A stretch of 61,698 nt of DNA from Candidatus Omnitrophota bacterium (GTDB lineage: Bacteria > Omnitrophota > Gorgyraeia > Gygaellales > Profunditerraquicolaceae). Positions 31,453-61,478 of this stretch are shown here, one piece after another. The translations under genes and the position numbers were made by a program. The notes under the pieces were generated by a model. The model saw only the letters and a program-made list of their open reading frames with translations, was not told where the DNA came from and ran no database searches. Location of the stretch: contig JBAZUE010000001.1 in the NCBI GenBank assembly GCA_041661605.1, forward strand, positions 66,786-128,483, in the 5' to 3' direction. Position 1 is the stretch's first letter. Every line of letters begins with the position of its first letter.

Positions 31453-31455
31453 AAA

Positions 31456-32385: not shown

Positions 32386-32401
32386 GAAAGCAGGTTGGCA
32401 A

Positions 32402-33076: not shown

Positions 33077-33080
33077 ACAA

Positions 33081-39766: not shown

Positions 39767-39785
39767 CCAAAGGAGAACTTACGTA

Positions 39786-40817
39786 ATGGCTATGTTAAAT
39801 GTTTTACAATTTGATAACGAAAATTTGAAACGCAGGTTGCTTTTTACTTACCGCAGGGGGAAGGGGAGATTCTTAAAATATTTTTTGAACCGGTTCCAAT
39901 GGAACTATTTCGCTAAATATCATATTTTATCTTCCAAGCCGCCCCATATTGATATTGAACCGACATCGATCTGTAATATGAGCTGCCCGATGTGTTTTAC
40001 GAATTTTACCGATGTGAACCGCAACGGTTTTATGGATTTATCACTTTATAAAAAGATCATTGATGACGCCGCGGAATTAGGTATTTTTTCAGTACGCCTA
40101 AGCCACCGCGGTGAGCCGTTATTGCATAAAAATTACCTGGAAATGGTAAGCTACGCCAAGAAAAAGGGGATACCGGAGGTCAGCACGCTGACCAATGGGC
40201 TCTTGCTGGACAAAGAGATGATCCAGGGGTTATTTGATGCCGGCCTGGACTGGCTCAATATCTCGATTGACGGAGTCGGCAGTGCCTATGAAAGTATACG
40301 CCGTCCGGCCAAATTCGCGGATATTGAAGAAAAGGTAAAATTCGCGCATGCCTTAAGAACTCAGCGCAAGATGGTCCGGCCGATAATATGGGTCCAGTCG
40401 ATTTGGTCGGCAGTGGAAAAAAATCCGGCAGAGTATATCAATAAATTCAGCCCTTACGTTGATAAGATCGCTTTTCATGTTGATAACGACTATGCCAATA
40501 AGTTCGAAAAAGAGCCGTCCTGGGTTTGCCACCGGCTATGGCACAGAATGATGATCTTATGGGATGGAAGAGTGCCGCTGTGCAATTCTGATTTTGAATG
40601 CAAAAATCAGATTGGGGATATGCGCAGGCAAACGATCAAAGAAGTTTGGCTGGGTGAGGAAATGCAAAAAGCGCGGGAGCTTAATTTAAAGAAACAAAGG
40701 CTAAAGCTTATCCCTTGCGACGATATCTGTAACTGGGGAAACAAAAGAGTATGGAAAACCGTAGTTATTGACGGCAAAGAACAAAGGATATTGTCCCAGG
40801 TCTTAAAAGATAAATGA
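39786..40817 (+). CDS. Radical SAM/SPASM domain protein
   Basis: CNMSCPMC, RGEPLLH and CHRLW...PLCNSDF...CDDIC. Paralog of the preceding gene. Confidence 0.88.
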   Translation: MAMLNVLQFDNENLKRRLLFTYRRGKGRFLKYFLNRFQWNYFAKYHILSSKPPHIDIEPTSICNMSCPMCFTNFTDVNRNGFMDLSLYKKIIDDAAELGIFSVRLSHRGEPLLHKNYLEMVSYAKKKGIPEVSTLTNGLLLDKEMIQGLFDAGLDWLNISIDGVGSAYESIRRPAKFADIEEKVKFAHALRTQRKMVRPIIWVQSIWSAVEKNPAEYINKFSPYVDKIAFHVDNDYANKFEKEPSWVCHRLWHRMMILWDGRVPLCNSDFECKNQIGDMRRQTIKEVWLGEEMQKARELNLKKQRLKLIPCDDICNWGNKRVWKTVVIDGKEQRILSQVLKDK

Positions 40818-41674
40818 AGTTAAAAACTACTTTTATTGGAAATGAGTCGCCTTTTTTAATCACGGTCATGAGCAATTCCGATTTACACCTGATCGTATGC
40901 GCGCCTCTGGATAAAAAAAGCAAAGCATCTTTCGGCGGAGCATGGGATTTCGCAAAAAACAACAGGATCAAAACCGTTACCCCGGATAAATACCTGAAGC
41001 ACCCGGTTCCTACCGATCTTATTATTGTTTCCGGTTATCATAAATTAATACCCCGCCGGATCATTTTGATGCCCCGGATAGGCATGATAAACATCCATCA
41101 GTCGCTATTGCCGGCTTACCGCGGCAGGCATCCTTTAAATTGGGCGATTATAAACGGCCTGAAATATACCGGCGTTACCATTCATCATGTAAGCGAGAGA
41201 TTTGACGCGGGAAATATTATCCTCCAGAAAAAAGTCAGGATCGGCAAAGATGATGAAATAATGGATTTGTATGCTAAAACGTTAAAGCCGGCAAAACAGT
41301 TATTAGCAAAGATATTCCGGATTACTAACAAACGATCATTTAAGGGGAGGGCGCAGAATAAACGTTTAGCTTCTTATTTCCCTGCCCGGAAGCCGTCGGA
41401 TGGAAAAATAAACTGGAAAGACCCGGCTGTTAATATCAGAAATTTGGCCAGGGCTTTAACCGGCCCTTATCCGGGGGCTTATTTTTATTTAAAAGGGAAA
41501 AGAATTATACTGGAAAAAGCGGAGCTGGTTAAGAAATACCCGTATAAAATCAATGCGGGGGAATTCATTAACGTTAACGGAAGCATTATCGCCGGGACTG
41601 GAAAAGGGGCTTTAAAGATAATAAAGATCAGGGGTAAAGCAATAAAATCCCTTGCCCGGCTTATTAAAAAATGA
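40814..41674 (+). CDS. N10-formyl-THF-dependent formyltransferase (sugar N-formyltransferase-like)
   Basis: INIHQSLLPAYRG, GVTIH, DAGNII, and a C-terminal Fmt-like domain (DGKINW, PYPGA). Confidence 0.8.
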   Translation: MKLKTTFIGNESPFLITVMSNSDLHLIVCAPLDKKSKASFGGAWDFAKNNRIKTVTPDKYLKHPVPTDLIIVSGYHKLIPRRIILMPRIGMINIHQSLLPAYRGRHPLNWAIINGLKYTGVTIHHVSERFDAGNIILQKKVRIGKDDEIMDLYAKTLKPAKQLLAKIFRITNKRSFKGRAQNKRLASYFPARKPSDGKINWKDPAVNIRNLARALTGPYPGAYFYLKGKRIILEKAELVKKYPYKINAGEFINVNGSIIAGTGKGALKIIKIRGKAIKSLARLIKK

Positions 41675-43005
41675 ATCTTTTATTAGCTAATCTACATTGG
41701 AATTACGGCGTTGATCTAAGCCTCAAAAAAATGGGGCATCTTGATTTTTGTACTGGCTTGGCAATAATTGCCGGAGAAATACGGGAAAAAAGGAACGATA
41801 CGCTGTTTGTCTTGGATAATTATGTCCGCGATATATCTGAAGAAGAAATTGATAAATTTATTGAAAAACACCGCATTGATTGTATTCTTCTTTCCATGTA
41901 TTTGGGGAACTTCCAATATAAGTACCTTAAGCGGTTTATCCTGCATGTTATTAAAATTTTTCCGCATATCAAGATAATCATCGGGGGCCCCATGGCTTCT
42001 ACCATACCCGATGTGTTATTGGGTAATATTGTTGCTTCTGATAAACAGATCATTTGCGTAGTGGGGGAAGGTGAATATACCATTATTGATTTATTAAATT
42101 GTATTTCCGCTGAAGGCAGGTTTGCTGATATAAAAGGAATTGTTTATAAAGAAGGCTTAATTATTCATACCGCAGCAAGAGAGCGCATTAAGAATCTTGA
42201 TATCCGGACTAAGCCGGCTTATGAGTTGTTTGATATGGAAAAATATCTTGATTATATTAAAGCTAAAAACCGTTGTTGGGAAATGATCACTAGTAGAGGT
42301 TGTTATGGAAGCTGCACTTTTTGCAAACTTGTTTTTGGACAGGATATTACCATGAGGTCGGCTGCTTCCATAGTTTCCGAGATGGAGGAGTTTTACAAAA
42401 CCTTTGGGATCAACAGGTTTAATTTTGTAGATGATAATTTTTTGAACTCTGAAAATAGGGTGTGGGATTTCTATAATGCGTTAAAGAAAAGCAAAATACA
42501 GTTTAAATGGCGGTTTCAGGGCAGGGCGGACAGATTACATCCGGATTTAGCGAAGGCCTTGATGGATGTTGGTTTATTTGATGTCATGTTGGGGATAGAA
42601 TCCGGTTCACCGGAGATCCTGAAAGAAATGAATAAAAATCTTGATTTGGAAGTGGCAAAAAATTATATTCAAAGATATCCATCAGGACTCGATACACACG
42701 GTACTTTTGTTGTTGGGATGCCCGGTGAATCAGAAAAAACAATTAAACAAACAGAAGAATTCATAAAAGAGTCAGGGCTTAAATACATCACTGCCGGGAT
42801 ATTAACTATTTTCCCTGGAACACATATCTATAGGTACGCAATGAACAAAGGATATATTCCTAACGAGGATATTTATTGCGAAAATTTAGGCCCGATTTAT
42901 GTAAAATCTTATATTAACCTCACTAAATACACGGACGATCAATTATTGCAATGGCGGAAATTGCTTATTTTCTCCGGGAAGGTAGTTGACCATTGGTCTG
43001 TTTAG
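41671..43005 (+). CDS. B12-binding radical SAM protein
   Basis: IIIGGP and GEGEYT cobalamin domain, SRGCYGSCTFC, FVDDNF and GIESGS. Confidence 0.88.
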   Translation: MNLLLANLHWNYGVDLSLKKMGHLDFCTGLAIIAGEIREKRNDTLFVLDNYVRDISEEEIDKFIEKHRIDCILLSMYLGNFQYKYLKRFILHVIKIFPHIKIIIGGPMASTIPDVLLGNIVASDKQIICVVGEGEYTIIDLLNCISAEGRFADIKGIVYKEGLIIHTAARERIKNLDIRTKPAYELFDMEKYLDYIKAKNRCWEMITSRGCYGSCTFCKLVFGQDITMRSAASIVSEMEEFYKTFGINRFNFVDDNFLNSENRVWDFYNALKKSKIQFKWRFQGRADRLHPDLAKALMDVGLFDVMLGIESGSPEILKEMNKNLDLEVAKNYIQRYPSGLDTHGTFVVGMPGESEKTIKQTEEFIKESGLKYITAGILTIFPGTHIYRYAMNKGYIPNEDIYCENLGPIYVKSYINLTKYTDDQLLQWRKLLIFSGKVVDHWSV

Positions 43006-43026
43006 GTATAAAGGAATTTTAAAACT

Positions 43027-44595
43027 ATGAAACCATCGGAAATCATTAACATAATTACATCAATAGAGGATAATTTCCCGGTCGATACCTGGGTAGTCAA
43101 AGGTATCCATGTTTGGCCGTTATTACGCATTGAGCTTAAATCAAAGATCTTTGAGGCGTACCATTTACCTGTATCGCGGAATGTATCTAAAAATTCCGGT
43201 TTTCTTAAGATAAAAAAACTTTTGTTTTTGTGCAAAAACGCGGCTAAATATGGCTGGAATTACCTTTTGGATTACTCGCACAATGACAAGGTAAACCGCC
43301 GCTGTGAAGCTGTTTTTTTATCTTACTCCTTGCACCGTTCATTACTTAATGGGAAATGGTATGATCGTTGTTGTGATCCTCTTATAAGCGCCATGGAGGA
43401 ATTAGGAAAAAAATGTTTTCTTTTTGAGGTAGAAGAAGGATCCCCTGATTATGATTACCGGATTCCCCGCTTTAAGCCTTCTGTTTATATCAAAGGCTAT
43501 ATTGATTATGTCAAAATAAAACAATTTTTTTTAAGGGGTAAATCCCAGTCTAAAGAAGTTAATCTTAAGGGGTTTGCCGAATTTATCGGTTATTTAAAAG
43601 AAAAACAAATAAAGATCAAATACCCGCAGATAAATAATCTTATCTTCCGCGTGTCAGTAATATTAGAGTTGGCAGAGTATTTTATAAAAGCCTTCGGTAT
43701 TCTTAAGCCTCAAGTGGCATTTGTCGCTGATTACTATTCAACCATCGAAAGGTTTGCCTATATTTTGGCTTGCCGAAAAATGGAAATCCCTTGTATTGAT
43801 ATCCAGCATGGGGCTGGATGTGAAGATTATAGTGTTGCCTATGCGCGATGGAAAAAAGTTCCCAAAGAGGGATACGAATTATTGCCAACTATTTTTTGGT
43901 GCTGGGGTAAGAGGGAGGCGGAAGTTATTAGGCAATGGAATAGTAATGTCTCTGATTTCCATTATCCTTTTGTCGGAGGTAATCCTTGGCTTGATCTCTG
44001 GAATAACAAAAGCGGGGAACCCACTAAATCATACAATGAGAAGATTGCAAAGCTAAAGAATAGGATAAATAAGCCGTATTTTATATTATTTACTCTTGAT
44101 TTGTTTTTTGGTATTCCTGATTGGTTCGCTAAAGTAATACAATTATCTTCGGATGAATTCTATTGGTGGATCAGGATACATCCAGCCCAGGTAAGCCAAA
44201 GAAAAAGAATTGAAGATGAACTTAAAAAATATAATCTGACTAACATTGAGCTTGATTATGCTACCAGCCTGCCGCTTCCCGCTTTATTGCAGCATTGCGA
44301 TATTCATGTAACCGGAGTATCCAGCAGTAGTATAGAAGCTTTGTATTTTGGGGTTCCTACTATTGTCACCCATAAGGATGCGCAAGAAACTTATTCTGAG
44401 CTTATTGCTGCGGGGAAAATCTCGCAGGCTTATACTACTGAAGATTTGATGAAGATGATCAGGTCTTTAGCCGTGAATAAAGGGAAAAATACTAAAGATA
44501 GCGATACGGAATTATCGGATTCAACTGCTATAGGCAAGACGCGGGAATTTTTTCAACAAATAAATAAAATTCTTAATAATGGAGGTCAATTTTAA
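43027..44595 (+). CDS. Putative GT-B glycosyltransferase (sialyl/Kdo-transferase-like)
   Basis: IDIQHG, CWG, GNPW, RIHP (HP motif) and SSSSIEALYFGVP. Family assignment is inference. Confidence 0.45.
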   Translation: MKPSEIINIITSIEDNFPVDTWVVKGIHVWPLLRIELKSKIFEAYHLPVSRNVSKNSGFLKIKKLLFLCKNAAKYGWNYLLDYSHNDKVNRRCEAVFLSYSLHRSLLNGKWYDRCCDPLISAMEELGKKCFLFEVEEGSPDYDYRIPRFKPSVYIKGYIDYVKIKQFFLRGKSQSKEVNLKGFAEFIGYLKEKQIKIKYPQINNLIFRVSVILELAEYFIKAFGILKPQVAFVADYYSTIERFAYILACRKMEIPCIDIQHGAGCEDYSVAYARWKKVPKEGYELLPTIFWCWGKREAEVIRQWNSNVSDFHYPFVGGNPWLDLWNNKSGEPTKSYNEKIAKLKNRINKPYFILFTLDLFFGIPDWFAKVIQLSSDEFYWWIRIHPAQVSQRKRIEDELKKYNLTNIELDYATSLPLPALLQHCDIHVTGVSSSSIEALYFGVPTIVTHKDAQETYSELIAAGKISQAYTTEDLMKMIRSLAVNKGKNTKDSDTELSDSTAIGKTREFFQQINKILNNGGQF

Positions 44596-45983
44596 TGAAA
44601 GTTCTGGTTATTAATACTTCGCTTAGGCCTTTTTCGCCGGTGAAGCTTTTTCCTATCGGTTTAGGTTATGTTATGACAGCGATGAAGAGGGTGGGTTTTG
44701 ATTTTGATCTATTGGATATTGACGCTTACCGGTATTCCGACGCTCAGGTAGAAAAGCTGATCAGGAAAAAGGAATACGATGTTATTTGTATGGGGTGTAT
44801 CGTAACAGGCTACAGGATCATTAAATCGTTGGCTGCTTTAATTAAGCTTATTCATCCTAAGTCCAAGATTATTGTCGGCAATTCTGTGGCTACCTCGATC
44901 GTGGATATATTATTAAGTAAGACCGAGACTGATATCGCAGTGATGGGGGAAGGGGATGAGACTATTGTTGAACTGCTAAAAACTATATCTGAAAATGGCA
45001 GGTTGGAGGATGTGCGCGGGATCTGTTTTAAAAAAGACGGTAAAATAATTAAAAATAGCTTGCGGCAAGCGATTAAGGATATTTCGGTACTGCCCAGTAT
45101 TGACCTTTCGATATTCGATATTGAAATATATATTGAAGCGTCCAAATATACGGTGAATGAGCCGCTTCCTGTGCCCCGTGAACAGATCAGGTCTTTACAG
45201 GTCAATACTTCCCGCGGCTGTATCGCAAGCTGCAGTTTTTGCTACCAGGTTTTTAAAGGGTATCCGTATCGTTTTAGGAATGCTGATTCTGTTATTAATG
45301 AGATCAAGAAGCTCATCGAAACCTATGCTATTAATTATATCGTGTTTTCAGATGAACTGACGTTTTTTTCCAAAAAACAACTTTCGGAGTTCCTGGACAA
45401 GATCCTTGCGTCAGGTTTGTCGTTTTATTGGGCAGCCAGTTGCCGGGGTAATCTTTTTACCAATGAAGAAGATATTGAAATAATAAAAAGAATGAAGAAA
45501 TCAGGCTGTGTGAGCATGTCGTATTCCCTAGAATCAGCCGACCCTGATATTTTAAAGATGATGAAAAAGCACGTGGGAAGTGAGCAGTTTTCAAGACAGA
45601 CAAAAATGTTTGCCGCGGCAGGGTTACCCACCGTAACCAGCCTGGTTTTAGGCTACCCTCAGGAAACTCCGGAGACTATCAGGAAAACCATTGATTGCTG
45701 TATTGAGAACAAGCTTTATCCTTCGGTAGGATACCTCCTGCCTCAGCCTGGTTCTGAAATGTACGATTACGCGCTGGAGCACGGAATAATCAAGGACCAG
45801 GAGGAATATTTACTTAAGATGGGGGACAGGCAGGATCTCCTGGTTAATTTTACCAAAATGAGCAATGAGGAGTTCCAATCCCAGGTTTTGACCCAGCTTA
45901 AGCGTTGCAATGAATCACTGCAGATAGGTTTGGATGAGAAGAATCTGATTAAAACTCTTTTCTTAAGGTCAAAGAAAAAATGA
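44595..45983 (+). CDS. B12-binding radical SAM protein
   Basis: PIGLGY, IIVGN, GEGDET, SRGCIASCSFC and LESAD. Confidence 0.88.
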   Translation: MKVLVINTSLRPFSPVKLFPIGLGYVMTAMKRVGFDFDLLDIDAYRYSDAQVEKLIRKKEYDVICMGCIVTGYRIIKSLAALIKLIHPKSKIIVGNSVATSIVDILLSKTETDIAVMGEGDETIVELLKTISENGRLEDVRGICFKKDGKIIKNSLRQAIKDISVLPSIDLSIFDIEIYIEASKYTVNEPLPVPREQIRSLQVNTSRGCIASCSFCYQVFKGYPYRFRNADSVINEIKKLIETYAINYIVFSDELTFFSKKQLSEFLDKILASGLSFYWAASCRGNLFTNEEDIEIIKRMKKSGCVSMSYSLESADPDILKMMKKHVGSEQFSRQTKMFAAAGLPTVTSLVLGYPQETPETIRKTIDCCIENKLYPSVGYLLPQPGSEMYDYALEHGIIKDQEEYLLKMGDRQDLLVNFTKMSNEEFQSQVLTQLKRCNESLQIGLDEKNLIKTLFLRSKKK

Positions 45984-47341
45984 AGCAAATTTTTAGGATA
46001 GCAATGAATTTCAGGCTGTTTAAAAAGAGAATAATAGAACGCCTTTATTTTTCCGCGCTAATAAGGAATTCGAGTATTTATTTAGGTTCGAATCTTATTA
46101 ACTCTGTTATCCCGTTTCTTTTATTGCCTGTTCTTACGCGTTATCTTTCTCCTTCAGATTACGCCATTGTCGCCATGTTCCAGATATTAAGCAGCTTATT
46201 ATTTCCTGTTATTAGCTTGTCTGTACAGGGTGCTGTTACAATAAAATATTTTGATAAAGATAGAATTATTCTCCCCAGGTATATCGGTAATTGCTTGTTT
46301 ATTATATGTTTCAATACGTTAATAATGGGATTTTTGTTTTATTGTTTCGGTTCGTTTATAAGCGGTATCAGCTTATTTCCGCTGACTTGGTTATGGTCGC
46401 CTTTGTTATTTGCTTTTGCCCAGACTTTGGTCATGCTTGTCTTGACTTTATGGATCGTACAATCAAAAGCCATATCGCATACTTTATTTCAAATCCTAAT
46501 GAGTTTCTTAAACGTCATGTTTACTATATTTTTTGTGGTGGCTTTGAAGAAAAATTGGGAAGGCCGCATCGAGGCCCAGCTGATAACTACCGTTATTTTC
46601 GCTTTTCTCAGCCTTATTTATTTGTGTAAAAAGCGCTTAGTAGATTTTACATTCAATTTCGGATACATTAAAAACGCTTTGCGGTATGGCGTGCCTTTAA
46701 TACCCCACGAGATCGGCGGCTTATTAATGATGTATATTGACCGTTTTTTGCTGATGAACATGAAGGGGGCAGCAGATACCGGTGTTTATACGGTTGCCTT
46801 TCAGATTGCCAGCATATTCGGGATTATGGTACATTCTTTTCATAAAGCGTATGTACCCTGGTTGTTTGAGAAAATTAAAACTAATGATTTTCTGGTTAAA
46901 TTAAAGATAGTCAAGTTAACGTATCTTTATTTCGTTGTTGTTTTGATTATGGCGGTAGCGTATTCTTTAATTGCTTCCTGGGCATTGAAATTTATCGTCG
47001 GAAAAAATTTTACGGGAGCCGGCATATACATTATCTGGTTTACAATAGGTTCGGCTTTTATCGGCATGTACTATATGGTAAGCACTTATCTGCTCTTTGC
47101 TGAAAAAACGTACGTGTTGGGGCTGGCGACTTTTTTTATTACCGTGTTAAATTCTATCCTGACCTTTTTTCTTATTAAAGTTAACGGGGTGCTCGGAGCC
47201 GCTCAAAGCGCGTTGATAACGAACCTGTTTTATTTTGCCCTGGTGTGGTTTTTGAGCTCAAAATTTTATAAAATGCCTTGGAGCCTGAAGAATAAACAAA
47301 AAGCATTTCTACAGAATGCCGTTAGGAGCGTTAATGAATAA
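45980..47341 (+). CDS. Wzx-type flippase / oligosaccharide exporter
   Basis: Many TM helices, LLLPVLTRYLSPSDYA, YGVPLIPH, YIDRFLL and GVYTVA. Confidence 0.85.
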   Translation: MKQIFRIAMNFRLFKKRIIERLYFSALIRNSSIYLGSNLINSVIPFLLLPVLTRYLSPSDYAIVAMFQILSSLLFPVISLSVQGAVTIKYFDKDRIILPRYIGNCLFIICFNTLIMGFLFYCFGSFISGISLFPLTWLWSPLLFAFAQTLVMLVLTLWIVQSKAISHTLFQILMSFLNVMFTIFFVVALKKNWEGRIEAQLITTVIFAFLSLIYLCKKRLVDFTFNFGYIKNALRYGVPLIPHEIGGLLMMYIDRFLLMNMKGAADTGVYTVAFQIASIFGIMVHSFHKAYVPWLFEKIKTNDFLVKLKIVKLTYLYFVVVLIMAVAYSLIASWALKFIVGKNFTGAGIYIIWFTIGSAFIGMYYMVSTYLLFAEKTYVLGLATFFITVLNSILTFFLIKVNGVLGAAQSALITNLFYFALVWFLSSKFYKMPWSLKNKQKAFLQNAVRSVNE

Positions 47342-48254
47342 TCAAAGCGAATGTGAATTTTGCGGTGGTAAAAAAGCAACTGTAATTAATACTTATAAAC
47401 ATTATTGGGTCTATTGTACAAATTGCGGTAATATCGTCCGGCGCCGAAAAAAGACATATTTGCTGGAGTTTATCCCGAAGAGTATTTTTTTAAAGCTGCC
47501 GAAAGGGAAAACTTTATTTTCAATGTTAAATAGAAACAAAGATAAGGATGCTTTTTACGATTATTATCTTGGGGATAATCAGGGGCAAGGTATAGTAAGG
47601 AGGACTAAATGGGAAGGGGAGCTGGAGAGCTTAACCAAAGAATTGTCAAGATTTGATATTTCTCTGCAAAATAAAAGGGTGTTGGATATTAGCGGCGGCC
47701 CTGGATTTTTGGTCCAAGATTTAAAAAACATATGCAAGGAGGCGGTGGTTACAGAATACAGCCAGGTTGCAGTTGATAGAATGAAAGACCTGCTCAAGGT
47801 GAATGCTGTAAAGTTTGATTATGATACAGACAAGATAGGAAAAGTTGTAAATGGTAAATTTGATATTGTGCTGATCAGGGCTTCAATTAACTTTTGCCTT
47901 GATATCAGAAAGATGCTGGTTTCACTTAAAAACATTCTGCATCAGGATAGTATTGTCTATGTGTCGTTTACGCCGCCGACATTAGGGGCTTGTTTAAGAT
48001 GGCAGTTTGACGATTATACATATCATATATTGTATAATCCGGAAACATTGGCGCGTTTATTCGCCGAAGAGGGCTTAGTCGCGTTCGCCAAGTATGAAAT
48101 GGCCAGATACCACTATCTTAGGGGGCGGCATCTTCGTTTCTTGCCGCTGATGATTCCATATCAAATCATTAATAGCGCAAAAAACTGCAACAGAGAGCTT
48201 ATGCAGAAATGCCTGGTTATGATTTTTAGAAAGAATCCCAGCGCAGCTTGGTAG
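47334..48254 (+). CDS. Class I SAM methyltransferase with N-terminal Cys4 knuckle
   Basis: CEFC...CTNC, VLDISGGPG and FDIVL. Start ATG 47334. Confidence 0.7.
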   Translation: MNNQSECEFCGGKKATVINTYKHYWVYCTNCGNIVRRRKKTYLLEFIPKSIFLKLPKGKTLFSMLNRNKDKDAFYDYYLGDNQGQGIVRRTKWEGELESLTKELSRFDISLQNKRVLDISGGPGFLVQDLKNICKEAVVTEYSQVAVDRMKDLLKVNAVKFDYDTDKIGKVVNGKFDIVLIRASINFCLDIRKMLVSLKNILHQDSIVYVSFTPPTLGACLRWQFDDYTYHILYNPETLARLFAEEGLVAFAKYEMARYHYLRGRHLRFLPLMIPYQIINSAKNCNRELMQKCLVMIFRKNPSAAW

Positions 48255-48313
48255 AATTTCAAAAGCATCATATTTCTTGACTTTTTCTGACTACTTGGTA
48301 GAGTATATGTTCA

Positions 48314-48673
48314 ATGAATGAACAACCCCTAAAAGAAGAAACTTTCTTGATTTTCAAGGAGTTAGAGGCCAGCCCAAATGCTACCCAAAGGGATATTTCC
48401 AGCCGTCTGAACATCTCCTTAGGTAAAACTAACTATCTCCTGCGCGAACTCATCCTAAAAGGCTTTATCAAAGCTAAAAATTTCACTGACAATCCCGGAA
48501 AGCTAAGAAAAATCCGTTATTTACTGACCGAAAAAGGTTTAGAAGAGAGATTCAGGCTTCTTAAGCATTTTTTGGAGGTAAAAGAGGCAGAATACAATAA
48601 ATTGAAGCAGGAATGGGAGCGCTTGCTTAATAATAAAGCAGTTGAGAAAGCCAAAGAGGAAATATGCAAGTAG
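48314..48673 (+). CDS. MarR-family EPS-associated transcriptional regulator
   Basis: TQRDISSRLNISLGKTNYLLRELILKGFIK...RYLLTEKG. Confidence 0.85.
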   Translation: MNEQPLKEETFLIFKELEASPNATQRDISSRLNISLGKTNYLLRELILKGFIKAKNFTDNPGKLRKIRYLLTEKGLEERFRLLKHFLEVKEAEYNKLKQEWERLLNNKAVEKAKEEICK

Positions 48674-49350
48674 TAATTTTAGCAGGCGGTAAGGGAATGC
48701 GGCTTAGGCCGATCACGAAGCTAGTGCCAAAGCCTATGGTGCCTATTTTAGGTAAGCCTTTTTTACAATATCAGCTGGAATTTGCCAGATCTTTAGGCCT
48801 AAAGCGGTTTTTGTTTTTAACCGGCTACCTGGGTGATCAGATAAAAAAATATTTTGGGGATGGCAAAAAATTCGGGGTAAAGATTGATTATTCCCGCGAA
48901 AAAAAGCTTTTGGGAACCGCTGGCGCATTAAGGAATGCAGCGCCTAAATTAGACAAAGAGTTCTTGCTTTTAAACGGCGATACTTTTTTACCTATTGATT
49001 ATAACAAGTTGATAAAATATTTTAAACAATGCGGCAGGGTTGGCATGGTTAGTGTTTATGATAATGCAAAAAAGATTGTTGCGAATAATATCGCGGTTGA
49101 TAAGTCTGGCCTGGTCATTAAATATGATAAAGAAGATCATAAAGGAATGGTTTGTGTCGATTCCGGAGCAGTGGTATTTAAAAAAGAGGTCCTAAGTCTT
49201 GTCCCCGCCGGAGAGTTTTGTTCATTAGAAAATGATGTTTTTGGTAAATTGATTGAAAAAAAAGAGCTAATGGTTTTTACTAATAGCCAAAGATTTTACG
49301 ATATGGGTAGTTTTCAGGGGTTAAAAGTTTTAAAAGATAAATTAAAATGA
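48664..49350 (+). CDS. Sugar-phosphate nucleotidyltransferase (HddC-like)
   Basis: ILAGGKGMRL, PKPMVPI, LGTAGAL, NGDT and YDMG. Confidence 0.8.
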   Translation: MQVVILAGGKGMRLRPITKLVPKPMVPILGKPFLQYQLEFARSLGLKRFLFLTGYLGDQIKKYFGDGKKFGVKIDYSREKKLLGTAGALRNAAPKLDKEFLLLNGDTFLPIDYNKLIKYFKQCGRVGMVSVYDNAKKIVANNIAVDKSGLVIKYDKEDHKGMVCVDSGAVVFKKEVLSLVPAGEFCSLENDVFGKLIEKKELMVFTNSQRFYDMGSFQGLKVLKDKLK

Positions 49351-49405
49351 TTAACATTGAAATTATTTAACCACAAAATTATGTGCAGGGCTAGAAAGGA
49401 TTAAA

Positions 49406-50374
49406 ATGTCAACTCAAACGCCTTTTATTGCTCTTATTGGGCTGGGGAATTGGGGGGAGAATCTTTTGCGTAACTTTTATGAATTAGGTGTTTTGCATAC
49501 AGCTTATGATATCAACAAGGCTGTTATGGAAAACAGGAAGCAGAAGTATTCTGATTTAAGATACGCCCAATCAATAGATGAAATCCTTTCTTCATCTAAA
49601 ATTACGGCAGTGGCGATTGCCGCCTCGGCCGCGGCGCATTATGATTTAGCCAAACGCGCGATATTGGCAGGTAAAGATGTGTTTGTGGAGAAGCCGCTTG
49701 CGCTTACGGTCAAACAGGGCCGGGAAATTGTGGCTTTAGCTAAATCTCACAAACGCGTGTTGATGGTGGGGCATATTTTACAATACCATCCGGCGGTGCT
49801 AAAACTTAAAGAAATGATTAAGGCAGGCCAGTTGGGTAAGATCCATTATATCTATTCTAACCGTCTTAATATCGGCAAGCTGCGGGTAGAAGAAAACATC
49901 CTTTGGAGTTTTGCTCCGCATGATATCTCAGCGATTCTGATGCTTTTGGCAGAGGAGCCGGTGCGGGTGCATGCTTTCGGAGCTGATTATGTTAATAAAG
50001 GTATTAATGATGTTACGCTGACAGAGTTGGAATTTTCTGATGGGGTAAAAGGCCATGTTTTTGTTTCCTGGCTGCATCCGTTCAAGGAGCAAAAGCTGGT
50101 TGTAGTCGGATCCAAAGGCATGGCTGTTTTTGATGATGTGAGCAAGGAGAAACTTCTTTTCTATCCTCATACCATTGAGTGGAAAGAGGGTAATATTCCC
50201 GTGGCTCAGAAAGCGCATTATCAGGTCATTCCGGTTGAGGCCGGGGAACCGCTTAAATTTGAATTGCAGCATTTTGTGGAGTGTGTGGCTTCACGCGCTA
50301 AGCCCCGTACTGACGGAGAAGAGGGTTTGCGTGTTTTAAAGATCCTGGAGAGCGCGGAAAAAAATCTGCGATAG
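49406..50374 (+). CDS. Gfo/Idh/MocA oxidoreductase (WbpB/WlbA-like)
   Basis: [23 protein letters not shown] and WSFAPHD. Confidence 0.85.
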
Positions 50375-50387
50375 GGAGGTATTTGCT

Positions 50388-50975
50388 ATGGAAAACACAA
50401 AACCGGTTAATTATTTTAAGCATGAAAGTGCTTTTGTGGATGACGGGGCCTTGATTGGGGAGGGTTCAAAGATCTGGCATTTTTCCCATGTGCTTAAGAA
50501 TACAAGAATAGGAAAAAATTGCATTCTTGGCCAGAATGTGATGGTGGGCCCGGATGTGACTGTTGGTGATAAATGCAAGATCCAGAATAATGTTTCTATT
50601 TATAAAGGGGTGATCCTGGAGGATGAGGTTTTTTGCGGGCCATCATGTGTGTTTACTAATGTTTATAATCCGCGCGCGTTTATTGAACGTAAAGATGAGT
50701 TCCGGCCTACTTTGGTCAAACATGGCGCAACCATCGGGGCGAACGCGACAATCGTCTGCGGAGTTACTATCGGCCGCTATGCTTTAATTGGAGCAGGCGC
50801 GGTGGTAAAAAAAGATGTGCCGGATTATGGTATCGTAGTTGGTGTGCCGGCGGTATTAAAAGGTTGGGCCTGCCGTTGCGGGGTAACGCTTCCTAAAACC
50901 AAAAAGCCTGTTTTAACCTGTCCGTCATGTAAGTCAGGGTATAGAGTATCAAAAAATATTCTCAGCGCTATTTAA
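50388..50975 (+). CDS. Hexapeptide-repeat N-acetyltransferase (WbpD/WlbB-like)
   Basis: [28 protein letters not shown] and GANATIVCG. Confidence 0.9.
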
Positions 50976-50987
50976 GAAAGGGAATCA

Positions 50988-52124
50988 ATGCCAATTCCGA
51001 TGTTAGATCTTAAAACCGAGTATCTTTACATGAAAGATGATATTGATGCCGTGTTATTCCGGTGCCTTGACCATCAGCGCTGGATCTTGGGTCCGGAGGT
51101 TAATGAGTTTGAGAAAAAAATCGCCTCTTATTTAAATGTGCCTGATTGTATCGGCTGCTCTTCAGGAACCGAGGCTTTAGTCCTGGCTCTTAGGGCGTTG
51201 GCTATCAAACTTACGGGAAAAGAATATTTTGAACGTAAACATCTAATCCTGACAACGCCATTTACTTTTATCGCTACAGGGGATGCGATTTTACGTTCGG
51301 GGGCTACGCCTATTTTTGTAGATATCGATTCCAATACTTATAACGTTGATATTTCTCAGCTTAAAGCCTGCGTAGAAAAGATTCCTGATATTATCGGCAT
51401 AATCCCGGTGCATCTTTACGGCAGGCCATGCGCGATGGATGAAATTATGGATTTGGCGGCCGCTAAGAAACTTTTTGTCGTGGAGGATGTGGCTCAAGCT
51501 TTCGGAGCTTCGGATAAAGGCAGGAAACTTGGAGCAATCGGTGATTTTGGTTGTTTTTCTTTTTTTCCGTCTAAAAATCTGGGCGGGTTTGGTGACGCGG
51601 GAATGGTCGCTGCCAAAGATAATCAGTTGGCTGAACTTGTGCGGATGCTGACTAAGCATGGCGGAAAGGATAAGAATAACGCTGATCATATCGGTTATAA
51701 TAGCCGCTTGGATACATTGCAGGCGGCCATTTTAACTGCCAAATTTAAATATGTTGATGAGTTTAATGCCCGGCGCCGCAAGATCGCGTTGCTTTATAAT
51801 GAAGGGTTAAAGGGGGCCGCAGGCATTAAAACTCCTGAAATTATCGATGGCCATGTGGTGCATCAGTATACTATTTGCGCGCCGTGCCGCGATCAAATGC
51901 AGTCTGAGCTTAAGAAATCCGGCATTCAAAGCATGATTTATTATCAGCATCCTTTGCATACTATGAAGGTGTTTAAGGATAATAACGCGCGGATTTTTGG
52001 TTCGCTGGCAAACGCGGAAAGCGCCGCGCTCCAGGTCTTGAGCCTTCCGATAGATCCTTTAATGAATAAGGCGGCGATAGATGAAGTAGTTGGGGTGATT
52101 AAGAAACAGGTAACTAAGGGTTGA
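50988..52124 (+). CDS. DegT-family aminotransferase (WbpE/WlbC-like)
   Basis: VHLYG, EDVAQAFG, SFFPSKNLGGFGDAG and NSRLDTLQAA. Confidence 0.88.
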   Translation: MPIPMLDLKTEYLYMKDDIDAVLFRCLDHQRWILGPEVNEFEKKIASYLNVPDCIGCSSGTEALVLALRALAIKLTGKEYFERKHLILTTPFTFIATGDAILRSGATPIFVDIDSNTYNVDISQLKACVEKIPDIIGIIPVHLYGRPCAMDEIMDLAAAKKLFVVEDVAQAFGASDKGRKLGAIGDFGCFSFFPSKNLGGFGDAGMVAAKDNQLAELVRMLTKHGGKDKNNADHIGYNSRLDTLQAAILTAKFKYVDEFNARRRKIALLYNEGLKGAAGIKTPEIIDGHVVHQYTICAPCRDQMQSELKKSGIQSMIYYQHPLHTMKVFKDNNARIFGSLANAESAALQVLSLPIDPLMNKAAIDEVVGVIKKQVTKG

Positions 52125-52125
52125 T

Positions 52126-52746
52126 ATGATCGCAATCGTTGATTATGGAATGGGTAATTTGGGTTCGATCCATAATATGCTGCAACGGCTGGGGATTGTT
52201 GGTATCTCGACTAAAGATCCGGATCAGATTAGGGATGCTGAAAAAATTATTTTGCCCGGAGTGGGTTCCTTTGATCAGGCGATGAAGAACCTTAATGATT
52301 TGAATTTAACGGGAATTCTTAATGAAAAAGTACAAAAATTAAAAACCCCGGTTTTGGGAATATGCCTGGGGATGCAGCTAATGACTAAAGACAGCCAGGA
52401 AGGTTCTTTGCCTGGCCTGGGATGGATAAATGCCAACACTATGAGATTTAATTTTTTGTCTTTAGGTCCGGTTTTAAAAATCCCGCATATGGGTTGGAAT
52501 ACGCTGAAAATAAAAAAGAATGTTGCGCTTTTAGCGGATTTACCGTTAAATCCGCGGTTTTATTTTGTGCACTCATATCATGTAGTTTGCAATGATCCGC
52601 TTGATATCGCCGCAACGACAGATTACGGGTATGATTTTATTTCGGTTCTGCAGCATGATAATATTTACGCGGTGCAATTTCATCCGGAAAAAAGCCATCA
52701 GTTTGGAATGCAGGTTTTAAAAAATTTCGCACAACGCCCATGTTAA
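52126..52746 (+). CDS. hisH: HisH-like glutaminase subunit (glycan amidotransferase partner)
   Basis: DYGMGN, LPGVG, GICLGMQ, PHMGWN and QFHPEKS. Confidence 0.85.
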   Translation: MIAIVDYGMGNLGSIHNMLQRLGIVGISTKDPDQIRDAEKIILPGVGSFDQAMKNLNDLNLTGILNEKVQKLKTPVLGICLGMQLMTKDSQEGSLPGLGWINANTMRFNFLSLGPVLKIPHMGWNTLKIKKNVALLADLPLNPRFYFVHSYHVVCNDPLDIAATTDYGYDFISVLQHDNIYAVQFHPEKSHQFGMQVLKNFAQRPC

Positions 52747-53516
52747 TTCCAAGGATAATCCCATGCCTGCTGCTTCAGGGCGCAGGATTGGTAAAAACTA
52801 TAAAATTCAAGAATGAGAAATATATCGGTGATCCGGTGAACGCGATAAAAATATTTAATGAAAAAGGCGCCGATGAGCTGATTTTTCTAGATATTATGGC
52901 AAGTATAGAAAATCGCAAGCCGGATTTTGCTTTAATCTCCCAGGTAGCCGCGGAGTGTTTTATGCCGGTATGCTATGGCGGTGGGATAAAAGAGATAGAT
53001 GATGCCAAAAGAATTTTTAACTCCGGCATAGAAAAGATATCTTTGGGGTCGGGGGCGATAGAGAAACCGGAATTTATTAGAGAGCTCGTTAGGATCTTCG
53101 GGAGTCAAAGTATTGTCGCCTGCCTTGACGTAAAGAAGAATTTGCTTGGTAATTATGAAGTTGTGATACATAGAGCTCGAAAGAAAACAGGATTAGAGCC
53201 GTGGGCCGCGGCGAAAAAGATGCAGGATATGGGGGTGGGCGAGCTTTTAATTAATTCAGTTGATCGGGACGGAACTATGTCAGGATATGATCTCGGTTTA
53301 ATGCAAAAAATAACGAAAAACATCAGTATTCCGGTAATTGCCTGCGGCGGAGCCGGGAACCTGAAGCATATAGCCGAAGTAATTAATGAGGGAGGGGCTT
53401 CTTCAGGCGCAGCCGGCAGCTTGTTTGTTTTTCATAGCAAGCGTCGCGGCGTGCTCATTAATTATCCTGATAGGGAGCAGATCGATAGTTTGTTTAAAAG
53501 GATGGAACATGCCTAA
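52740..53516 (+). CDS. hisF: HisF-like cyclase subunit (AglZ/HisF2 type)
   Basis: PRIIPCLL, YIGDPVNA, ADELIFLDI, DRDGTMSGYD and ACGGAG. Confidence 0.85.
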   Translation: MLIPRIIPCLLLQGAGLVKTIKFKNEKYIGDPVNAIKIFNEKGADELIFLDIMASIENRKPDFALISQVAAECFMPVCYGGGIKEIDDAKRIFNSGIEKISLGSGAIEKPEFIRELVRIFGSQSIVACLDVKKNLLGNYEVVIHRARKKTGLEPWAAAKKMQDMGVGELLINSVDRDGTMSGYDLGLMQKITKNISIPVIACGGAGNLKHIAEVINEGGASSGAAGSLFVFHSKRRGVLINYPDREQIDSLFKRMEHA

Positions 53517-54624
53517 AGATAATTACACTATTTGTACGCGCTGTGTAATGGACAATAGCGATAAAAGCATTAATTTTAACGAAAACGGCGTATGTAATTA
53601 TTGCCGGGAATTCGAACAAAAGAAATCATTATATGTCCTCAGTGAGGCGGAATCTAACCGCAGGCTCCAGCGTTTGGTTAGTAATATTAAAGTCGCAAGC
53701 AAAGGCAGTGAATATGATTCTGTAATTGGTCTAAGCGGAGGAGTTGATAGTTCCTATGTGGCGTATTTAGCGTATAAACTCGGCCTAAAGCCGTTGGCTA
53801 TCCATTTTGACAACGGGTGGGATTCCGAAGTTGCCGTAGCCAATATTAAAAAGATTGTCGATAAATGTGGCTTTGACCTGGAAACTTATGTCATCGACTG
53901 GCCTGAATTCCGCGATTTACAGCGCTCATTCATTAAAGCTTCGGTGGTCGATATTGAAATGTTGACTGATCAGGCGATCTGCGCTGCGATGTTCCATTTT
54001 GCCAAAAAATACAAGATCAGATATATTCTTAGCGGATCCAATTACGCGACTGAGCATGGGATGCCGCAAGTTTGGACATGGCACAAGCTGGACGTGGGAA
54101 ATATTAAAGATATCCACCGCCGGTTCGGCGAATTAAAGCTTAGAACATTCCCTTTTATGGGTTTTTTTGAATTTGCGCTCCGGCGCAGAATAGGCAGGCG
54201 CATTGAGTATATTGAGTTGCTGGATAATGTTAATTACAAAAAAAATGAAGCAATTGATATTTTAAAGCATGAGTTTGATTGGAAATATTATGGCGGTAAG
54301 CATTATGAGTCGGTGTTTACTAAGTTTTACCAGGGTTATATCCTGCCGCATAAATTCGGGATAGATAAGCGCAGGGCGCATTGGTCGTCTCTGGTGCGTA
54401 ACCAGGAGATAACCCGGGAAGATGCGCTCAAGGAATTGGTTAAGCCGTTTTATGAGGTATCTGAGTTAAAAGTAGACAGGGAATATGTGTTGAAAAAACT
54501 CGGTTTTAGCGATCAGGAATTTGATTTGATTATGAAAGCACCGGAGGTGGGGCACCAGGCGTATTATTCCAGCTGGTGGATTTTTGAATTTTTCTCTAAA
54601 GTTTACAAAGATTTCCGGAAATAA
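53509..54624 (+). CDS. N-acetyl sugar amidotransferase (WbuX/WbpG/PseA-like)
   Basis: CTRCVMD, CNYC, SGGVDSS (PP-loop), HFDNGW and YGGKHYES. Start ATG 53509. Confidence 0.88.
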   Translation: MPKDNYTICTRCVMDNSDKSINFNENGVCNYCREFEQKKSLYVLSEAESNRRLQRLVSNIKVASKGSEYDSVIGLSGGVDSSYVAYLAYKLGLKPLAIHFDNGWDSEVAVANIKKIVDKCGFDLETYVIDWPEFRDLQRSFIKASVVDIEMLTDQAICAAMFHFAKKYKIRYILSGSNYATEHGMPQVWTWHKLDVGNIKDIHRRFGELKLRTFPFMGFFEFALRRRIGRRIEYIELLDNVNYKKNEAIDILKHEFDWKYYGGKHYESVFTKFYQGYILPHKFGIDKRRAHWSSLVRNQEITREDALKELVKPFYEVSELKVDREYVLKKLGFSDQEFDLIMKAPEVGHQAYYSSWWIFEFFSKVYKDFRK

Positions 54625-54639
54625 TTAGCTAAAGGGAGC

Positions 54640-56070
54640 ATGCCTGAAATGTCTGTATTATTAATCCGTCCTCAGACCCCGGATACCAGCCGCACCGGAC
54701 TGGTATCAGTTCAGTATCCGATCAATATCGGGTATCTGGTGTCATATTTAAAAAAGAACTCTATAAATTGCCTGGTAAGGGATTATGAGGTTGAGAATTT
54801 TTCCGAGCCCGAGTTTATTGAATATATCCGCAAGACTAAACCGACGCTGGCAGGTTTTTCTTGTATGACGCCCCATATTTTACATGCCGCCCGGATGGCC
54901 AGTATTATAAAATCGAATTTTCCTGATATTAAAACGGTGGCCGGAGGAGTGCATCCTTCTGCTATCCCGGAACAGACTTTAAGAGAATTCTCTCAATTTG
55001 ATATGGTGATTGCCGGTGAGGGAGAGCGGACATTGGCGCAGCTTTATAATAAAATTACGTCATCCGGAAGCTTAAACGATGTAGAGGGGCTGGTTTTTAG
55101 AAACAATAACGGAATTATTATTAATCCCAAGAGGCCTTTAATTGAAGACTTGGATGAAGTTCCTTTTCCCGACCGAAATGTTGTAAACTTTGATTACTAT
55201 AAACGCAGCCATGTCAGCAAAGGGTTTAGCCGCAGCGTGATTAAAATCGCAGAAATGATTTCTGCTCGGGGATGTCCCTATAATTGTATTTTTTGTGCCA
55301 GTAAAGTAGTGCATTCCAATAAAGTGCGTTTCCGCAGCCATGCCAATATCATTGCTGAAATAGAGGAACTGGTTGATAAATACAAAATAGAGCACCTTTC
55401 TTTTTTAGATGATACTTTTACTATCAAACAGGATATTCTCGAGCCCGTCTGTAATTTTATTAAAGAAAAGAAACTGACTTTTGATTGTTTTACCAGAGTT
55501 AATGATATTGATGAGGAAAAGATACGCCTAATGGTAAAAAGCGGGTGTAAGAAAATCAGCTTTGGGATTGAGTCCGGTAGCCCCAAAGTTCTTAAACTGC
55601 TTAAGAAAGGCATCACTTTACCGCAAATCAAGGAAGCATTCCGGTTGTGCAGAAAATCCGGTTTATCTAAGCTTGAAGGGACTTTTATGGTGGGCAGTCA
55701 TCCTGATGAAACCTTGGAAGATATTGAAATGACTAAGAAATTGATCTTTCAATTGCAGCCAGACATTATGGGGGTATTTGTTACGATCCCTTTCCCGGGC
55801 ACAGAATTCAACCGGATTTTAAAAGAACGTAAATTCTTATTAAACGAAAACTGGGAAGAATTTAGCCTGCTATTCGGGAAACCTTCCTGGAAATCCGGTG
55901 AGGTTTCTTCGGAGGATCTTAAGAAAATAGTAGAGAATATTATCTATAAGTATTATTCGAATCCGCTTCTTTTAGTAATGAATTTGATGAAAATTAGAAG
56001 CTGGAAAGAGTTAAAGTATTGGTTTTCCCTAGGCGTTTCTTTTATAAAGGCCAGAAAAGTCTTGAGATAA
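54640..56070 (+). CDS. B12-binding radical SAM protein
   Basis: PINIGYL, GGVHPS, GEGERT, ARGCPYNCIFC, FLDDTF and GIESGS. Confidence 0.9.
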   Translation: MPEMSVLLIRPQTPDTSRTGLVSVQYPINIGYLVSYLKKNSINCLVRDYEVENFSEPEFIEYIRKTKPTLAGFSCMTPHILHAARMASIIKSNFPDIKTVAGGVHPSAIPEQTLREFSQFDMVIAGEGERTLAQLYNKITSSGSLNDVEGLVFRNNNGIIINPKRPLIEDLDEVPFPDRNVVNFDYYKRSHVSKGFSRSVIKIAEMISARGCPYNCIFCASKVVHSNKVRFRSHANIIAEIEELVDKYKIEHLSFLDDTFTIKQDILEPVCNFIKEKKLTFDCFTRVNDIDEEKIRLMVKSGCKKISFGIESGSPKVLKLLKKGITLPQIKEAFRLCRKSGLSKLEGTFMVGSHPDETLEDIEMTKKLIFQLQPDIMGVFVTIPFPGTEFNRILKERKFLLNENWEEFSLLFGKPSWKSGEVSSEDLKKIVENIIYKYYSNPLLLVMNLMKIRSWKELKYWFSLGVSFIKARKVLR

Positions 56071-56085
56071 AAGGTATATAATTCT

Positions 56086-56113
56086 TTGAATTTCCAATGG
56101 TTTATGATAAAAT
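56086..56113 (+). promoter_or_regulatory. Possible extended -10 promoter
   Basis: TTGAAT (56086-91), 16-bp spacer, TG-a-TAAAAT (TAAAAT at 56108-13). AAGGAG upstream of 56152. Confidence 0.4.
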
Positions 56114-56151
56114 ATTTCACTCATGATTGCAATAAAAAGGAGAGATAGGAT

Positions 56152-57165: not shown

Positions 57166-57167
57166 AA

Positions 57168-59753: not shown

Positions 59754-59769
59754 TCAAAGGAGTCAAGTA

Positions 59770-61475: not shown

Positions 61476-61478
61476 CCA

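Follow-up and report, generated by a model that had tools for sequence, protein, structure and literature searches.

Why would a bacterium with a 1.27-Mb genome keep several B12-binding radical S-adenosylmethionine (SAM) genes among the genes for its surface polysaccharides? The question is raised by a 61,698-nucleotide stretch of a Candidatus Omnitrophota genome (C1:66786-128483, hereafter the window; the genome is 85% complete), which carries three such genes, here named rsB1, rsB2 and rsB3. To our knowledge, cobalamin-dependent radical SAM enzymes are known for the tailoring of antibiotics, cofactors and lipids and not of surface glycans. We propose that the three enzymes tailor surface sugars by steps that include C-methylation, and we give this explanation as a whole a probability of roughly 0.58. 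That they serve surface-sugar biosynthesis is very probable, whereas methylation of an unactivated carbon is the most likely chemistry at somewhat better than even odds.

A sequence-only reading of the window had described three divergent B12-binding radical SAM genes interleaved with a flippase, a putative transferase and sugar-pathway genes. The three genes are real, and their open reading frames (ORFs) lie exactly where that reading had placed them:

41671-43005, plus strand: rsB1, class B radical SAM protein, 444 amino acids (aa; Pfam domains and motif)
44595-45983, plus strand: rsB2, class B radical SAM protein, 462 aa (Pfam domains and motif)
54640-56070, plus strand: rsB3, class B radical SAM protein, 476 aa (Pfam domains and motif)

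They are indeed divergent, with pairwise identities of 26-30%, and the Pfam and NCBIfam annotation of the neighbouring genes bears out the interleaving. In each protein a B12-binding domain (PF02310; 36.1, 56.4 and 75.5 bits in rsB1, rsB2 and rsB3, cut-off 32.1) is followed by a Radical_SAM domain (PF04055; 58.5, 72.5 and 88.6 bits, cut-off 29.5). The CxxxCxxC motif, which holds the SAM-cleaving [4Fe-4S] cluster, is intact in all three (residue 211 in rsB1, as CYGSCTFC, residue 209 in rsB2 and residue 212 in rsB3). The AlphaFold model of rsB2 (pLDDT 92.8, pTM 0.90) has the class B architecture of a Rossmann domain, a partial TIM barrel and a C-terminal domain, and Foldseek matches it to TsrM (3e-23), QCMT (5e-21), CysS (6e-21) and TokK (2e-18) with TM scores of 0.63-0.74. 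All three are class B enzymes with intact motifs and, judging from their domains, would use cobalamin. None reaches the cut-off of a curated NCBIfam radical SAM family, housekeeping families included. The top scores are 148 bits for rsB1 (HpnJ, cut-off 578), 146 bits for rsB2 (HpnJ) and 184 bits for rsB3 (BchE, cut-off 481), and all three proteins fall far under the cut-offs of the models for HpnJ, BchE, PhpK/SD1168, QCMT, BzaD, HpnR, KedN5, TsrM-type and ladderane radical SAM enzymes.

What ties these genes to surface sugars is the company that their relatives keep. rsB1 belongs to a small and discrete family (clade support 100%; bit scores fall from ~295 to ~206 beneath it), whose members were found in a context related to nonulosonic acid (NulO) synthesis in 7 of the 7 places that were readable. 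A gene string recurs in these loci: PIG-L, WbqC, carbamoyltransferase, SPASM radical SAM, (aminotransferase), CMP (cytidine monophosphate)-transferase, SPASM radical SAM, B12-binding radical SAM, (methyltransferase) and NeuB. It was detected in the archaeon Methanocalculus sp. MC3, a methanogen (56% identity), in an Omnitrophota-type contig and in two more contigs, and the gene order ahead of the rsB1 homologues in loci L005, L006, L160 and L161 is the same as in the window. Three further places hold more distant members (42-43% identity). The first is a NulO cluster that adjoins motA/motB. Another, in Desulfobacterales GCA_001799395.1 (L071:5583-11320), lies directly after a 1465-aa flagellin glycosyltransferase of the Maf/TPR/GT41 type and beside fliD; the rsB1 family is therefore found in the flagellin glycosylation islands of flagellated bacteria. 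The third is an Omnitrophota NulO locus holding a second class B gene. In the NulO locus of Omnitrophota GCA_030649895.1 (L162:10980-15040), WbqC and NeuB enclose an unusual tailoring set made up of two class B radical SAMs, an iron enzyme of the MbnB/TglH/ChrH (DUF692) group and a member of the BKACE family.

The rsB2 family is large and unusually conserved, with 60-67% identity across phyla. A scan with one genome per species gave 31 loci from at least 10 phyla, with carriers among the Syntrophaceae, Geobacteraceae, Desulfuromonadaceae, Firmicutes (Pelosinus, Propionispira arboris DSM 2179, Selenomonadales and Syntrophomonas), Bacteroidetes, Chloroflexota, Planctomycetota, Nitrospirae, Oligoflexia and Omnitrophota, as well as a Pelagibacteraceae genome and a Thermoplasmata archaeon. 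Neighbours were scored by tblastn with the window proteins and not by Pfam, so that divergent NeuB and CMP-transferase genes are probably undercounted. NeuB is encoded within 10 kb of the rsB2 relative in 20 of the 31 loci and directly adjoins it in 8 (P <1e-18 if a 5% background is assumed); several of the loci that lack NeuB are short contigs. The CMP-transferase was detected in 13 loci, PIG-L in 11, the class III aminotransferase in 8 and WbqC in 7. A relative with 40% identity is present in the SAR11-type Pelagibacteraceae bacterium AG-414-E02 (L032:10001-11473), beside DegT and epimerase genes and with NeuB ~9 kb off. If SAR11 bacteria are B12-independent, the presence of an rsB2 relative there is odd.

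Relatives of rsB3 (at least 38% identity) were collected from 39 metagenomic loci with 10-kb flanks. They also lie in glycan loci, but without a constant partner. The 126 genes within two genes of these relatives comprise 25 GT2 glycosyltransferases, 11 short-chain dehydrogenase/reductase (SDR) epimerases or dehydratases, 11 further radical SAMs (4 with a B12 domain) and 11 class I methyltransferases. Single loci show a nucleotidyltransferase, an epimerase, an rsB3-like gene and a dehydratase in a row, and a locus from Patescibacteria carries three class B genes.

The distribution of these genes is patchy. At the orthologue level (E <=1e-90), rsB1 is matched in 1 and rsB2 in 5 of 300 other genomes of the phylum, and neither has an orthologue in any of the 11 same-genus genomes. 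The best matches of rsB1 and rsB2 overall (56-67% identity) come from other phyla and from archaea. In general, class B radical SAMs are frequent in this phylum, with matches at E <=1e-60 in 87 of 301 genomes, often several in tandem. Because the congeners lack orthologues, we consider the rsB genes to be exchanged accessory genes and not housekeeping genes. They are horizontally exchanged, and their role in surface sugars is so far undescribed. A housekeeping role was rejected, as the scores stay under the curated cut-offs and orthologues are missing from congeners. The sequence-only reading would have been abandoned had the genes clustered with housekeeping radical SAMs and lacked glycan linkage elsewhere; we found instead that no curated cut-off is reached and that linkage to glycan genes extends across many phyla and archaea.

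Which sugars are at stake in the window can be read from the genes around rsB1, rsB2 and rsB3. The annotated features are as follows, a single number marking where a gene begins:

30418-31452, plus strand: DegT aminotransferase, head of the NulO cassette (Pfam)
31456, plus strand: SDR dehydratase/epimerase (Pfam)
32327, plus strand: PIG-L deacetylase (Pfam)
33081, plus strand: WbqC (Pfam)
33763, plus strand: short NeuB synthase (PF03102, 179 bits)
34642, plus strand: PseG-like hydrolase (PseG model, 126 bits), in the core block 30418-35664
35678, plus strand: radical SAM/SPASM protein (Pfam and NCBIfam)
36673, plus strand: class III aminotransferase, glutamate-1-semialdehyde-aminomutase-like (Pfam and NCBIfam)
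37956, plus strand: CMP-sugar cytidylyltransferase (PF02348, 109 bits)
38729 and 39786, plus strand: two further radical SAM/SPASM proteins (Pfam and NCBIfam)
40814, plus strand: formyltransferase, Fmt (Pfam and NCBIfam), in the tailoring block 35678-41674
43027-44595, plus strand: putative NulO glycosyltransferase of 522 aa, between rsB1 and rsB2 (weak NCBIfam matches to BFO_1060 glycosyltransferase and surf_polysacc)
45980-47341, plus strand: Wzx-type flippase (Pfam Polysacc_synt)
47316-48254, plus strand: class I SAM methyltransferase (Pfam Methyltransf_23/11)
48314, plus strand: MarR-like winged helix-turn-helix protein (Pfam)
48664, plus strand: sugar-1-phosphate nucleotidyltransferase (Pfam)
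49406, plus strand: GFO oxidoreductase resembling UDP-N-acetylglucosamine 3-dehydrogenase (Pfam)
50388, plus strand: N-acetyltransferase (Pfam)
50988, plus strand: DegT (Pfam)
52126, plus strand: HisH-like protein of an acetamidino-forming trio (Pfam)
52740, plus strand: AglZ/HisF2 (NCBIfam HisF2, 366.6 bits, cut-off 310)
53386-54624, plus strand: WbuX (NCBIfam, 286.3 bits, cut-off 203.2)
56152, plus strand: nucleoside diphosphate (NDP)-hexose 4,6-dehydratase (Pfam and NCBIfam)
57069, plus strand: NUDIX protein (Pfam and NCBIfam)
57757, plus strand: thiamine pyrophosphate (TPP)-dependent E1 alpha subunit (Pfam and NCBIfam)
58713, plus strand: TPP-dependent E1 beta subunit (Pfam and NCBIfam)
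59629, plus strand: methyltransferase (Pfam and NCBIfam)
60693, plus strand: SDR (Pfam and NCBIfam), closing a module that ends at 61475

The region's ORFs are tightly spaced, and every one is on the plus strand. Start and stop codons overlap between Fmt and rsB1 (4 bases), between the transferase and rsB2 (1 base) and between rsB2 and Wzx (4 bases), and because of these overlaps the genes Fmt-rsB1 and transferase-rsB2-Wzx are taken as one operon. This operon combines a NeuB-family synthase, a CMP-sugar cytidylyltransferase and upstream hexose-modifying enzymes, the set by which a NulO locus is recognized. It also includes the three radical SAM/SPASM genes (35678, 38729 and 39786), which the sequence-only reading had overlooked. 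The 43027-44595 protein has no Pfam match; its homologues (26-36% identity) are found in the NulO loci L005, L006 and L033. The description of the region as a surface-glycan locus needs sharpening: rsB1 and rsB2 are tied specifically to NulO biosynthesis and not to a generic O-antigen pathway, and rsB3 goes with an NDP-hexose dehydratase/TPP E1 module.

The NulO product is probably non-canonical, since the DegT, SDR, NeuB and PseG-like proteins score under the canonical pseudaminic (Pse), legionaminic (Leg) and neuraminic (Neu) acid cut-offs. None of the NCBIfam equivalogs is reached: NeuB 184 against 399.65 bits, PseI 146 against 340, PseC 141 against 423.5, LegB 147 against 475 and PseG 126 against 153.55. 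Of the 360 positions in the Pfam profile, the DegT protein at 30418 (344 aa) matches only 4-248, so that either the last third of the protein has diverged or the gene has been damaged. Relatives, too, have SPASM and aminotransferase genes paired, an arrangement reminiscent of an alcohol oxidation of the BtrN type with transamination as the next step; if BtrN-like, the pair would give the sugar an additional amino group. Further downstream, the HisH-like/HisF2/WbuX trio (52126-54624), which adjoins rsB3, indicates acetamidino modification of an N-acetyl sugar.

The context of rsB3 becomes clearer when the window is compared with a metagenomic contig of a near relative (L072), in which rsB3 is 95% identical. 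This contig keeps the interval 49392-61695 of the window, from the GFO oxidoreductase to the SDR, at 79-88% nucleotide identity. Upstream of 49392 it carries swapped genes: another class B radical SAM (33% identical to rsB2), another Wzx (35%) and another methyltransferase (38%). The two sequences are thus a mosaic with a breakpoint at ~49392, upstream of which the NulO cassette, Wzx and methyltransferase have been exchanged and downstream of which the sequence is conserved to the end of the window. Downstream protein identities are 98% for the dehydratase, 92% for NUDIX, 94% for E1 alpha and 98% for E1 beta, with a range of 82-98% over the module, and the acetamidino and aminosugar genes upstream of rsB3 are at 80-88%. 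Because the 95% of rsB3 matches the conservation of most downstream genes, rsB3 appears to belong with the dehydratase/TPP E1 alpha-beta module. This module (56152-61475) is probably a pathway to a branched or C-modified deoxy-sugar. It includes a TPP-dependent E1 alpha/beta pair that is like that of pyruvate dehydrogenase and lacks E2 and E3, and as a set the genes resemble AviB1/AviB2-type or YerE-type pathways to branched-chain sugars. Two related glycan loci, L002 and L071, likewise carry split pairs that are transketolase-like.

The window is not the whole of the system. The 76 kb that follow it (C1:128484-204483, L154-L157) hold 74 co-directional ORFs, among them 10 GT2, 10 SDR sugar enzymes, 3 GT1/GT4, 3 Wzy_C, 2 GT9 heptosyltransferases, 2 DegT and 2 nucleotidyltransferases, and the window genes are part of a glycan super-locus of ~120 kb, about a tenth of the genome. 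Five further B12-binding radical SAMs lie downstream of the window within 60 kb (C1:140339, 159186, 163252, 181402 and 186686). The genome has nine PF02310 genes in all, every one of class B radical SAM size (about 445-512 aa), and eight of the nine fall between C1:108.5 kb and 187.1 kb, a span of 78.5 kb (P ~3e-6 or less by chance). The cluster motif is present in all nine. They are 22-31% identical to each other, and the six other than rsB1-3 form isolated long branches in the tree, so that the nine copies represent old lineages; a recent duplication within the genome was rejected on the same grounds. The ninth copy (C2:160-3313, L159) is outside the glycan locus, in a context that is not obviously glycan. 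Beside it lie genes for a class I methyltransferase and for a protein in which a nucleotidyltransferase-like domain is fused to an adenosine 5'-phosphosulfate (APS) kinase, and the ninth copy may be linked to sulfation.

The genome is also equipped to supply the cofactor. A strong cobalamin riboswitch (92 bits) is located in the locus C1:284286-294400 (L158), with genes for a periplasmic binding protein, a FecCD permease and an ABC ATPase (BtuFCD-like) directly 3' of it, followed by a CobC-type phosphatase, CobU, CobT, CobS and CobQ. Ahead of the gene for a TonB-dependent receptor there is a second, weaker riboswitch-like match. Given the riboswitch, importer and salvage genes, corrinoids are therefore imported and completed. 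A scan of the genome found no PF02310 protein outside the nine ORFs of class B size, for example one of MetH size (NrdJ was not checked). The class B glycan enzymes suggest why a probably host-dependent bacterium with so small a genome retains corrinoid import and salvage.

What, then, would the three enzymes do to a sugar? Methylases make up most of the class B enzymes characterised so far, and those characterised on sugars are the C-methylases GenK, GenD1/GntE, Fms7 and MoeK5, besides HpnJ and OxsB (PMC12931638). Several observations nevertheless weigh against C-methylation by rsB1-3. The best PDB sequence match of all three families is AprD4 (6FD2; E 1e-13 to 7e-30), which acts on an aminoglycoside sugar and also stands near the top of the fold search (TM 0.75). 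Among the NCBIfam models HpnJ and BchE score best, and BchE, HpnJ and OxsB are class B enzymes that are not methylases. The operons already hold ordinary SAM methyltransferases, the B12-domain score of rsB1 is marginal (36.1 against 32.1 bits), and a gene neighbourhood is blind to which sugar, stage or atom is modified. The rsB3 family is weakly monophyletic, and because glycosyltransferases are its commonest neighbours, the substrate of rsB3 may be a glycan that is lipid-linked or already assembled instead of an NDP-sugar.

The alternative that fares best keeps the same sugars and changes the chemistry to AprD4-like 1,2-diol dehydration, HpnJ/OxsB-like ring contraction or rearrangement, BchE-like oxidation, or epimerisation, with cobalamin optional. 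It draws on the AprD4 matches in sequence and fold, on the lead of HpnJ and BchE among the NCBIfam models and on the methyltransferases already supplied by the operons; AprD4 itself lies within class B similarity networks yet does not bind cobalamin (PMC12931638). The fold search cannot be used to choose, as Foldseek ranks TsrM, AprD4, QCMT/MgmA, CysS, OxsB and TokK together at 15-18% identity, with scores so alike for TsrM, AprD4, QCMT and CysS that they confirm the class and leave methylase and dehydratase inseparable. The likeness to AprD4, however, is limited to the radical SAM core (residues ~160-400), whereas the N-terminal domains of the rsB families pass the Pfam B12-binding model and align with the cobalamin domains of CysS, TokK, OxsB and TsrM. 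After AprD4, the PDB profile ranks list QCMT (9CCB), OxsB, CysS and TokK; the QCMT match also spans the N-terminal domain, and QCMT is a true B12 C-methylase (PMC12931638). The AprD4-family model NF033070 gives only 89, 57 and 88 bits for rsB1, rsB2 and rsB3 against a cut-off of 500, and its matches span only residues ~154-404. In addition, corrinoid import and salvage under riboswitch control are retained in the genome, its nine PF02310 ORFs all have the size of class B radical SAMs, and methylation is, as noted, the majority activity of the class. We therefore regard a non-methylase chemistry as possible but rather unlikely, and C-methylation as the more probable use of the three enzymes.

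P-methylation by PhpK/SD1168-like enzymes, which would make methylphosphinate or phosphonate decorations of a glycan, is very improbable: the Sden_1168 and PhpK models rank fairly high in the NCBIfam comparison (116-139 bits), but these scores are far under the cut-offs of 575-600, no gene for phosphoenolpyruvate (PEP) mutase or the phosphonate pathway is found among the annotated genes of 30418-61475, and the conserved partners are NeuB, the CMP-transferase and sugar dehydratases. Equally hard to credit is a function unrelated to glycans, with housekeeping, lipid- or peptide-modifying enzymes merely situated in the locus, as weak NCBIfam similarity of rsB1-3 to models for ladderane-lipid enzymes, C-methylases of ribosomally synthesized and post-translationally modified peptides (RiPPs) and MiaB/RimO, together with the setting of the ninth copy, is set against scores under every curated cut-off, translational coupling to glycan genes, NulO or glycan linkage kept across phyla and archaea, and congeners without orthologues.

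On the C-methylation reading, we infer the substrate, the stage at which it is modified, the position attacked and the methyl transfer as follows. NeuB would condense a modified hexose with PEP, and the cytidylyltransferase would convert the product to a CMP-sugar, while the PIG-L deacetylase, formyltransferase, WbqC, SPASM radical SAMs and aminotransferase would rework the substituents of the sugar. rsB1 and rsB2 would modify an unactivated carbon of the NulO or of its N-acyl group, probably at the CMP-activated stage, and rsB3 would perform a comparable step on an NDP-6-deoxyhexose in the dehydratase/TPP E1 alpha-beta module. In each case the [4Fe-4S] cluster would cleave SAM to a 5'-deoxyadenosyl radical, which would abstract a hydrogen atom from the carbon; methylcobalamin, re-methylated by a second SAM and derived from imported corrinoid, would then give its methyl group to the carbon radical. 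The products would pass to the dedicated transferase, be flipped by Wzx and end up in lipopolysaccharide or another surface glycan.

One possible product deserves mention. Mass spectrometric evidence for higher-carbon, possibly C10, ulosonic acids was reported in Magnetospirillum gryphiswaldense (Kleikamp et al. 2020, PMC8157484), and the SugarBase preprint (bioRxiv 10.64898/2026.04.20.719630) describes CMP forms at m/z 679.198, 693.214 and 707.230, with one-CH2 spacing and a C10 backbone marker. No biosynthetic route to C10 ulosonic acids is proposed in these sources (PMC8157484; 10.64898/2026.04.20.719630). In Kuenenia, mass spectrometry showed directly that deacetylation and formylation of the NulO occur at the CMP-sugar stage, and these steps are linked to a deacetylase and formyltransferase pair (10.64898/2026.04.20.719630). 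We tentatively suggest, as a conjecture more doubtful than the chemistry itself, that rsB1 and rsB2, which are sister clades, could extend the CMP-NulO skeleton by radical C-methylation, once or repeatedly, to give ulosonic acids of ten or more carbons.

The claim that such enzymes have no established role in textbook O-antigen pathways agrees with the searchable literature on surface-glycan pathways. Sialic-acid-like sugars shape how a microbe is recognized by phages, immune systems and neighbouring cells, and their diversity is only partly explained. Among open-access papers and preprints we found none that links a radical SAM enzyme to nonulosonic acids or flagellin glycosylation, and an account in a subscription journal is possible. 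The 2026 review of the class uses the words sugar, glycan and polysaccharide nowhere in its text (PMC12931638), and a survey of Omnitrophota genomes mentions variable polysaccharide cassettes and not class B radical SAMs. From methanogens to Firmicutes, three uncharacterised families recur as conserved members of pathways for surface sugars, a pattern that suggests a radical step not yet described, most likely one that adds a carbon. They supply candidates that can be cloned, in part from cultured organisms (Pelosinus, Propionispira arboris DSM 2179 and Methanocalculus sp. MC3), and allow a direct test of where the unexplained ten-carbon ulosonic acids come from. If carbon extension is true, B12 radical chemistry would be a widespread and oxygen-independent means of diversifying surface sugars, and would give small-genome anaerobes a reason to keep corrinoid salvage.

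How do the rsB families compare with known systems? AprD4, the apramycin 1,2-diol dehydratase, has 457 aa, a size similar to that of the rsB proteins, and an amino-sugar substrate, but it works without cobalamin, and its likeness to them stops at the radical SAM core and excludes the N-terminal domain. The solved cobalamin-dependent radical SAM methylases QCMT/MgmA (9CCB), CysS (9N1B), TokK (7KDX) and TsrM (6WTF) have the same domain architecture and fold as the rsB families, whereas their substrates are protein glutamine, carrier-bound small molecules or tryptophan, and their identity to the rsB families is 15-18%; on the QCMT model TIGR04014, rsB1-3 score 85-116 bits against a cut-off of 360. 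The aminoglycoside and moenomycin enzymes GenK, GenD1/GntE, Fms7 and MoeK5, likened here by description only, are of the same class as rsB1-3 and attack unactivated sugar carbons; they come from antibiotic clusters of actinomycetes, while the rsB families are found in surface-glycan and NulO loci of many phyla.

Fom3, which accompanies the cytidylyltransferase domain of Fom1 in the fosfomycin pathway, acts on a CMP-activated intermediate. Like rsB1 and rsB2 it belongs to class B, and it is a C-methylase (PMC12931638). Its CMP-activated substrate parallels the conserved association of rsB1 and rsB2 with a gene for a CMP-sugar cytidylyltransferase, from which a CMP stage may be supposed for them too, although the substrate of Fom3 is a phosphonate and not a nine-carbon keto-sugar acid. 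The canonical pseudaminic and legionaminic clusters (PseB/C/H/G/I/F; LegB/C/H/G/I/F, Campylobacter ptm) have NeuB, DegT, SDR, PseG-like, CMP-transferase and WbqC genes in common with the window. Unlike them, the NulO locus of the window adds five radical SAMs (three SPASM and two of the B12 type) and a class III aminotransferase, a combination that we know from no canonical Pse or Leg cluster. The NulO cluster of Kuenenia shares with the window locus its pair of deacetylase and formyltransferase genes (10.64898/2026.04.20.719630).

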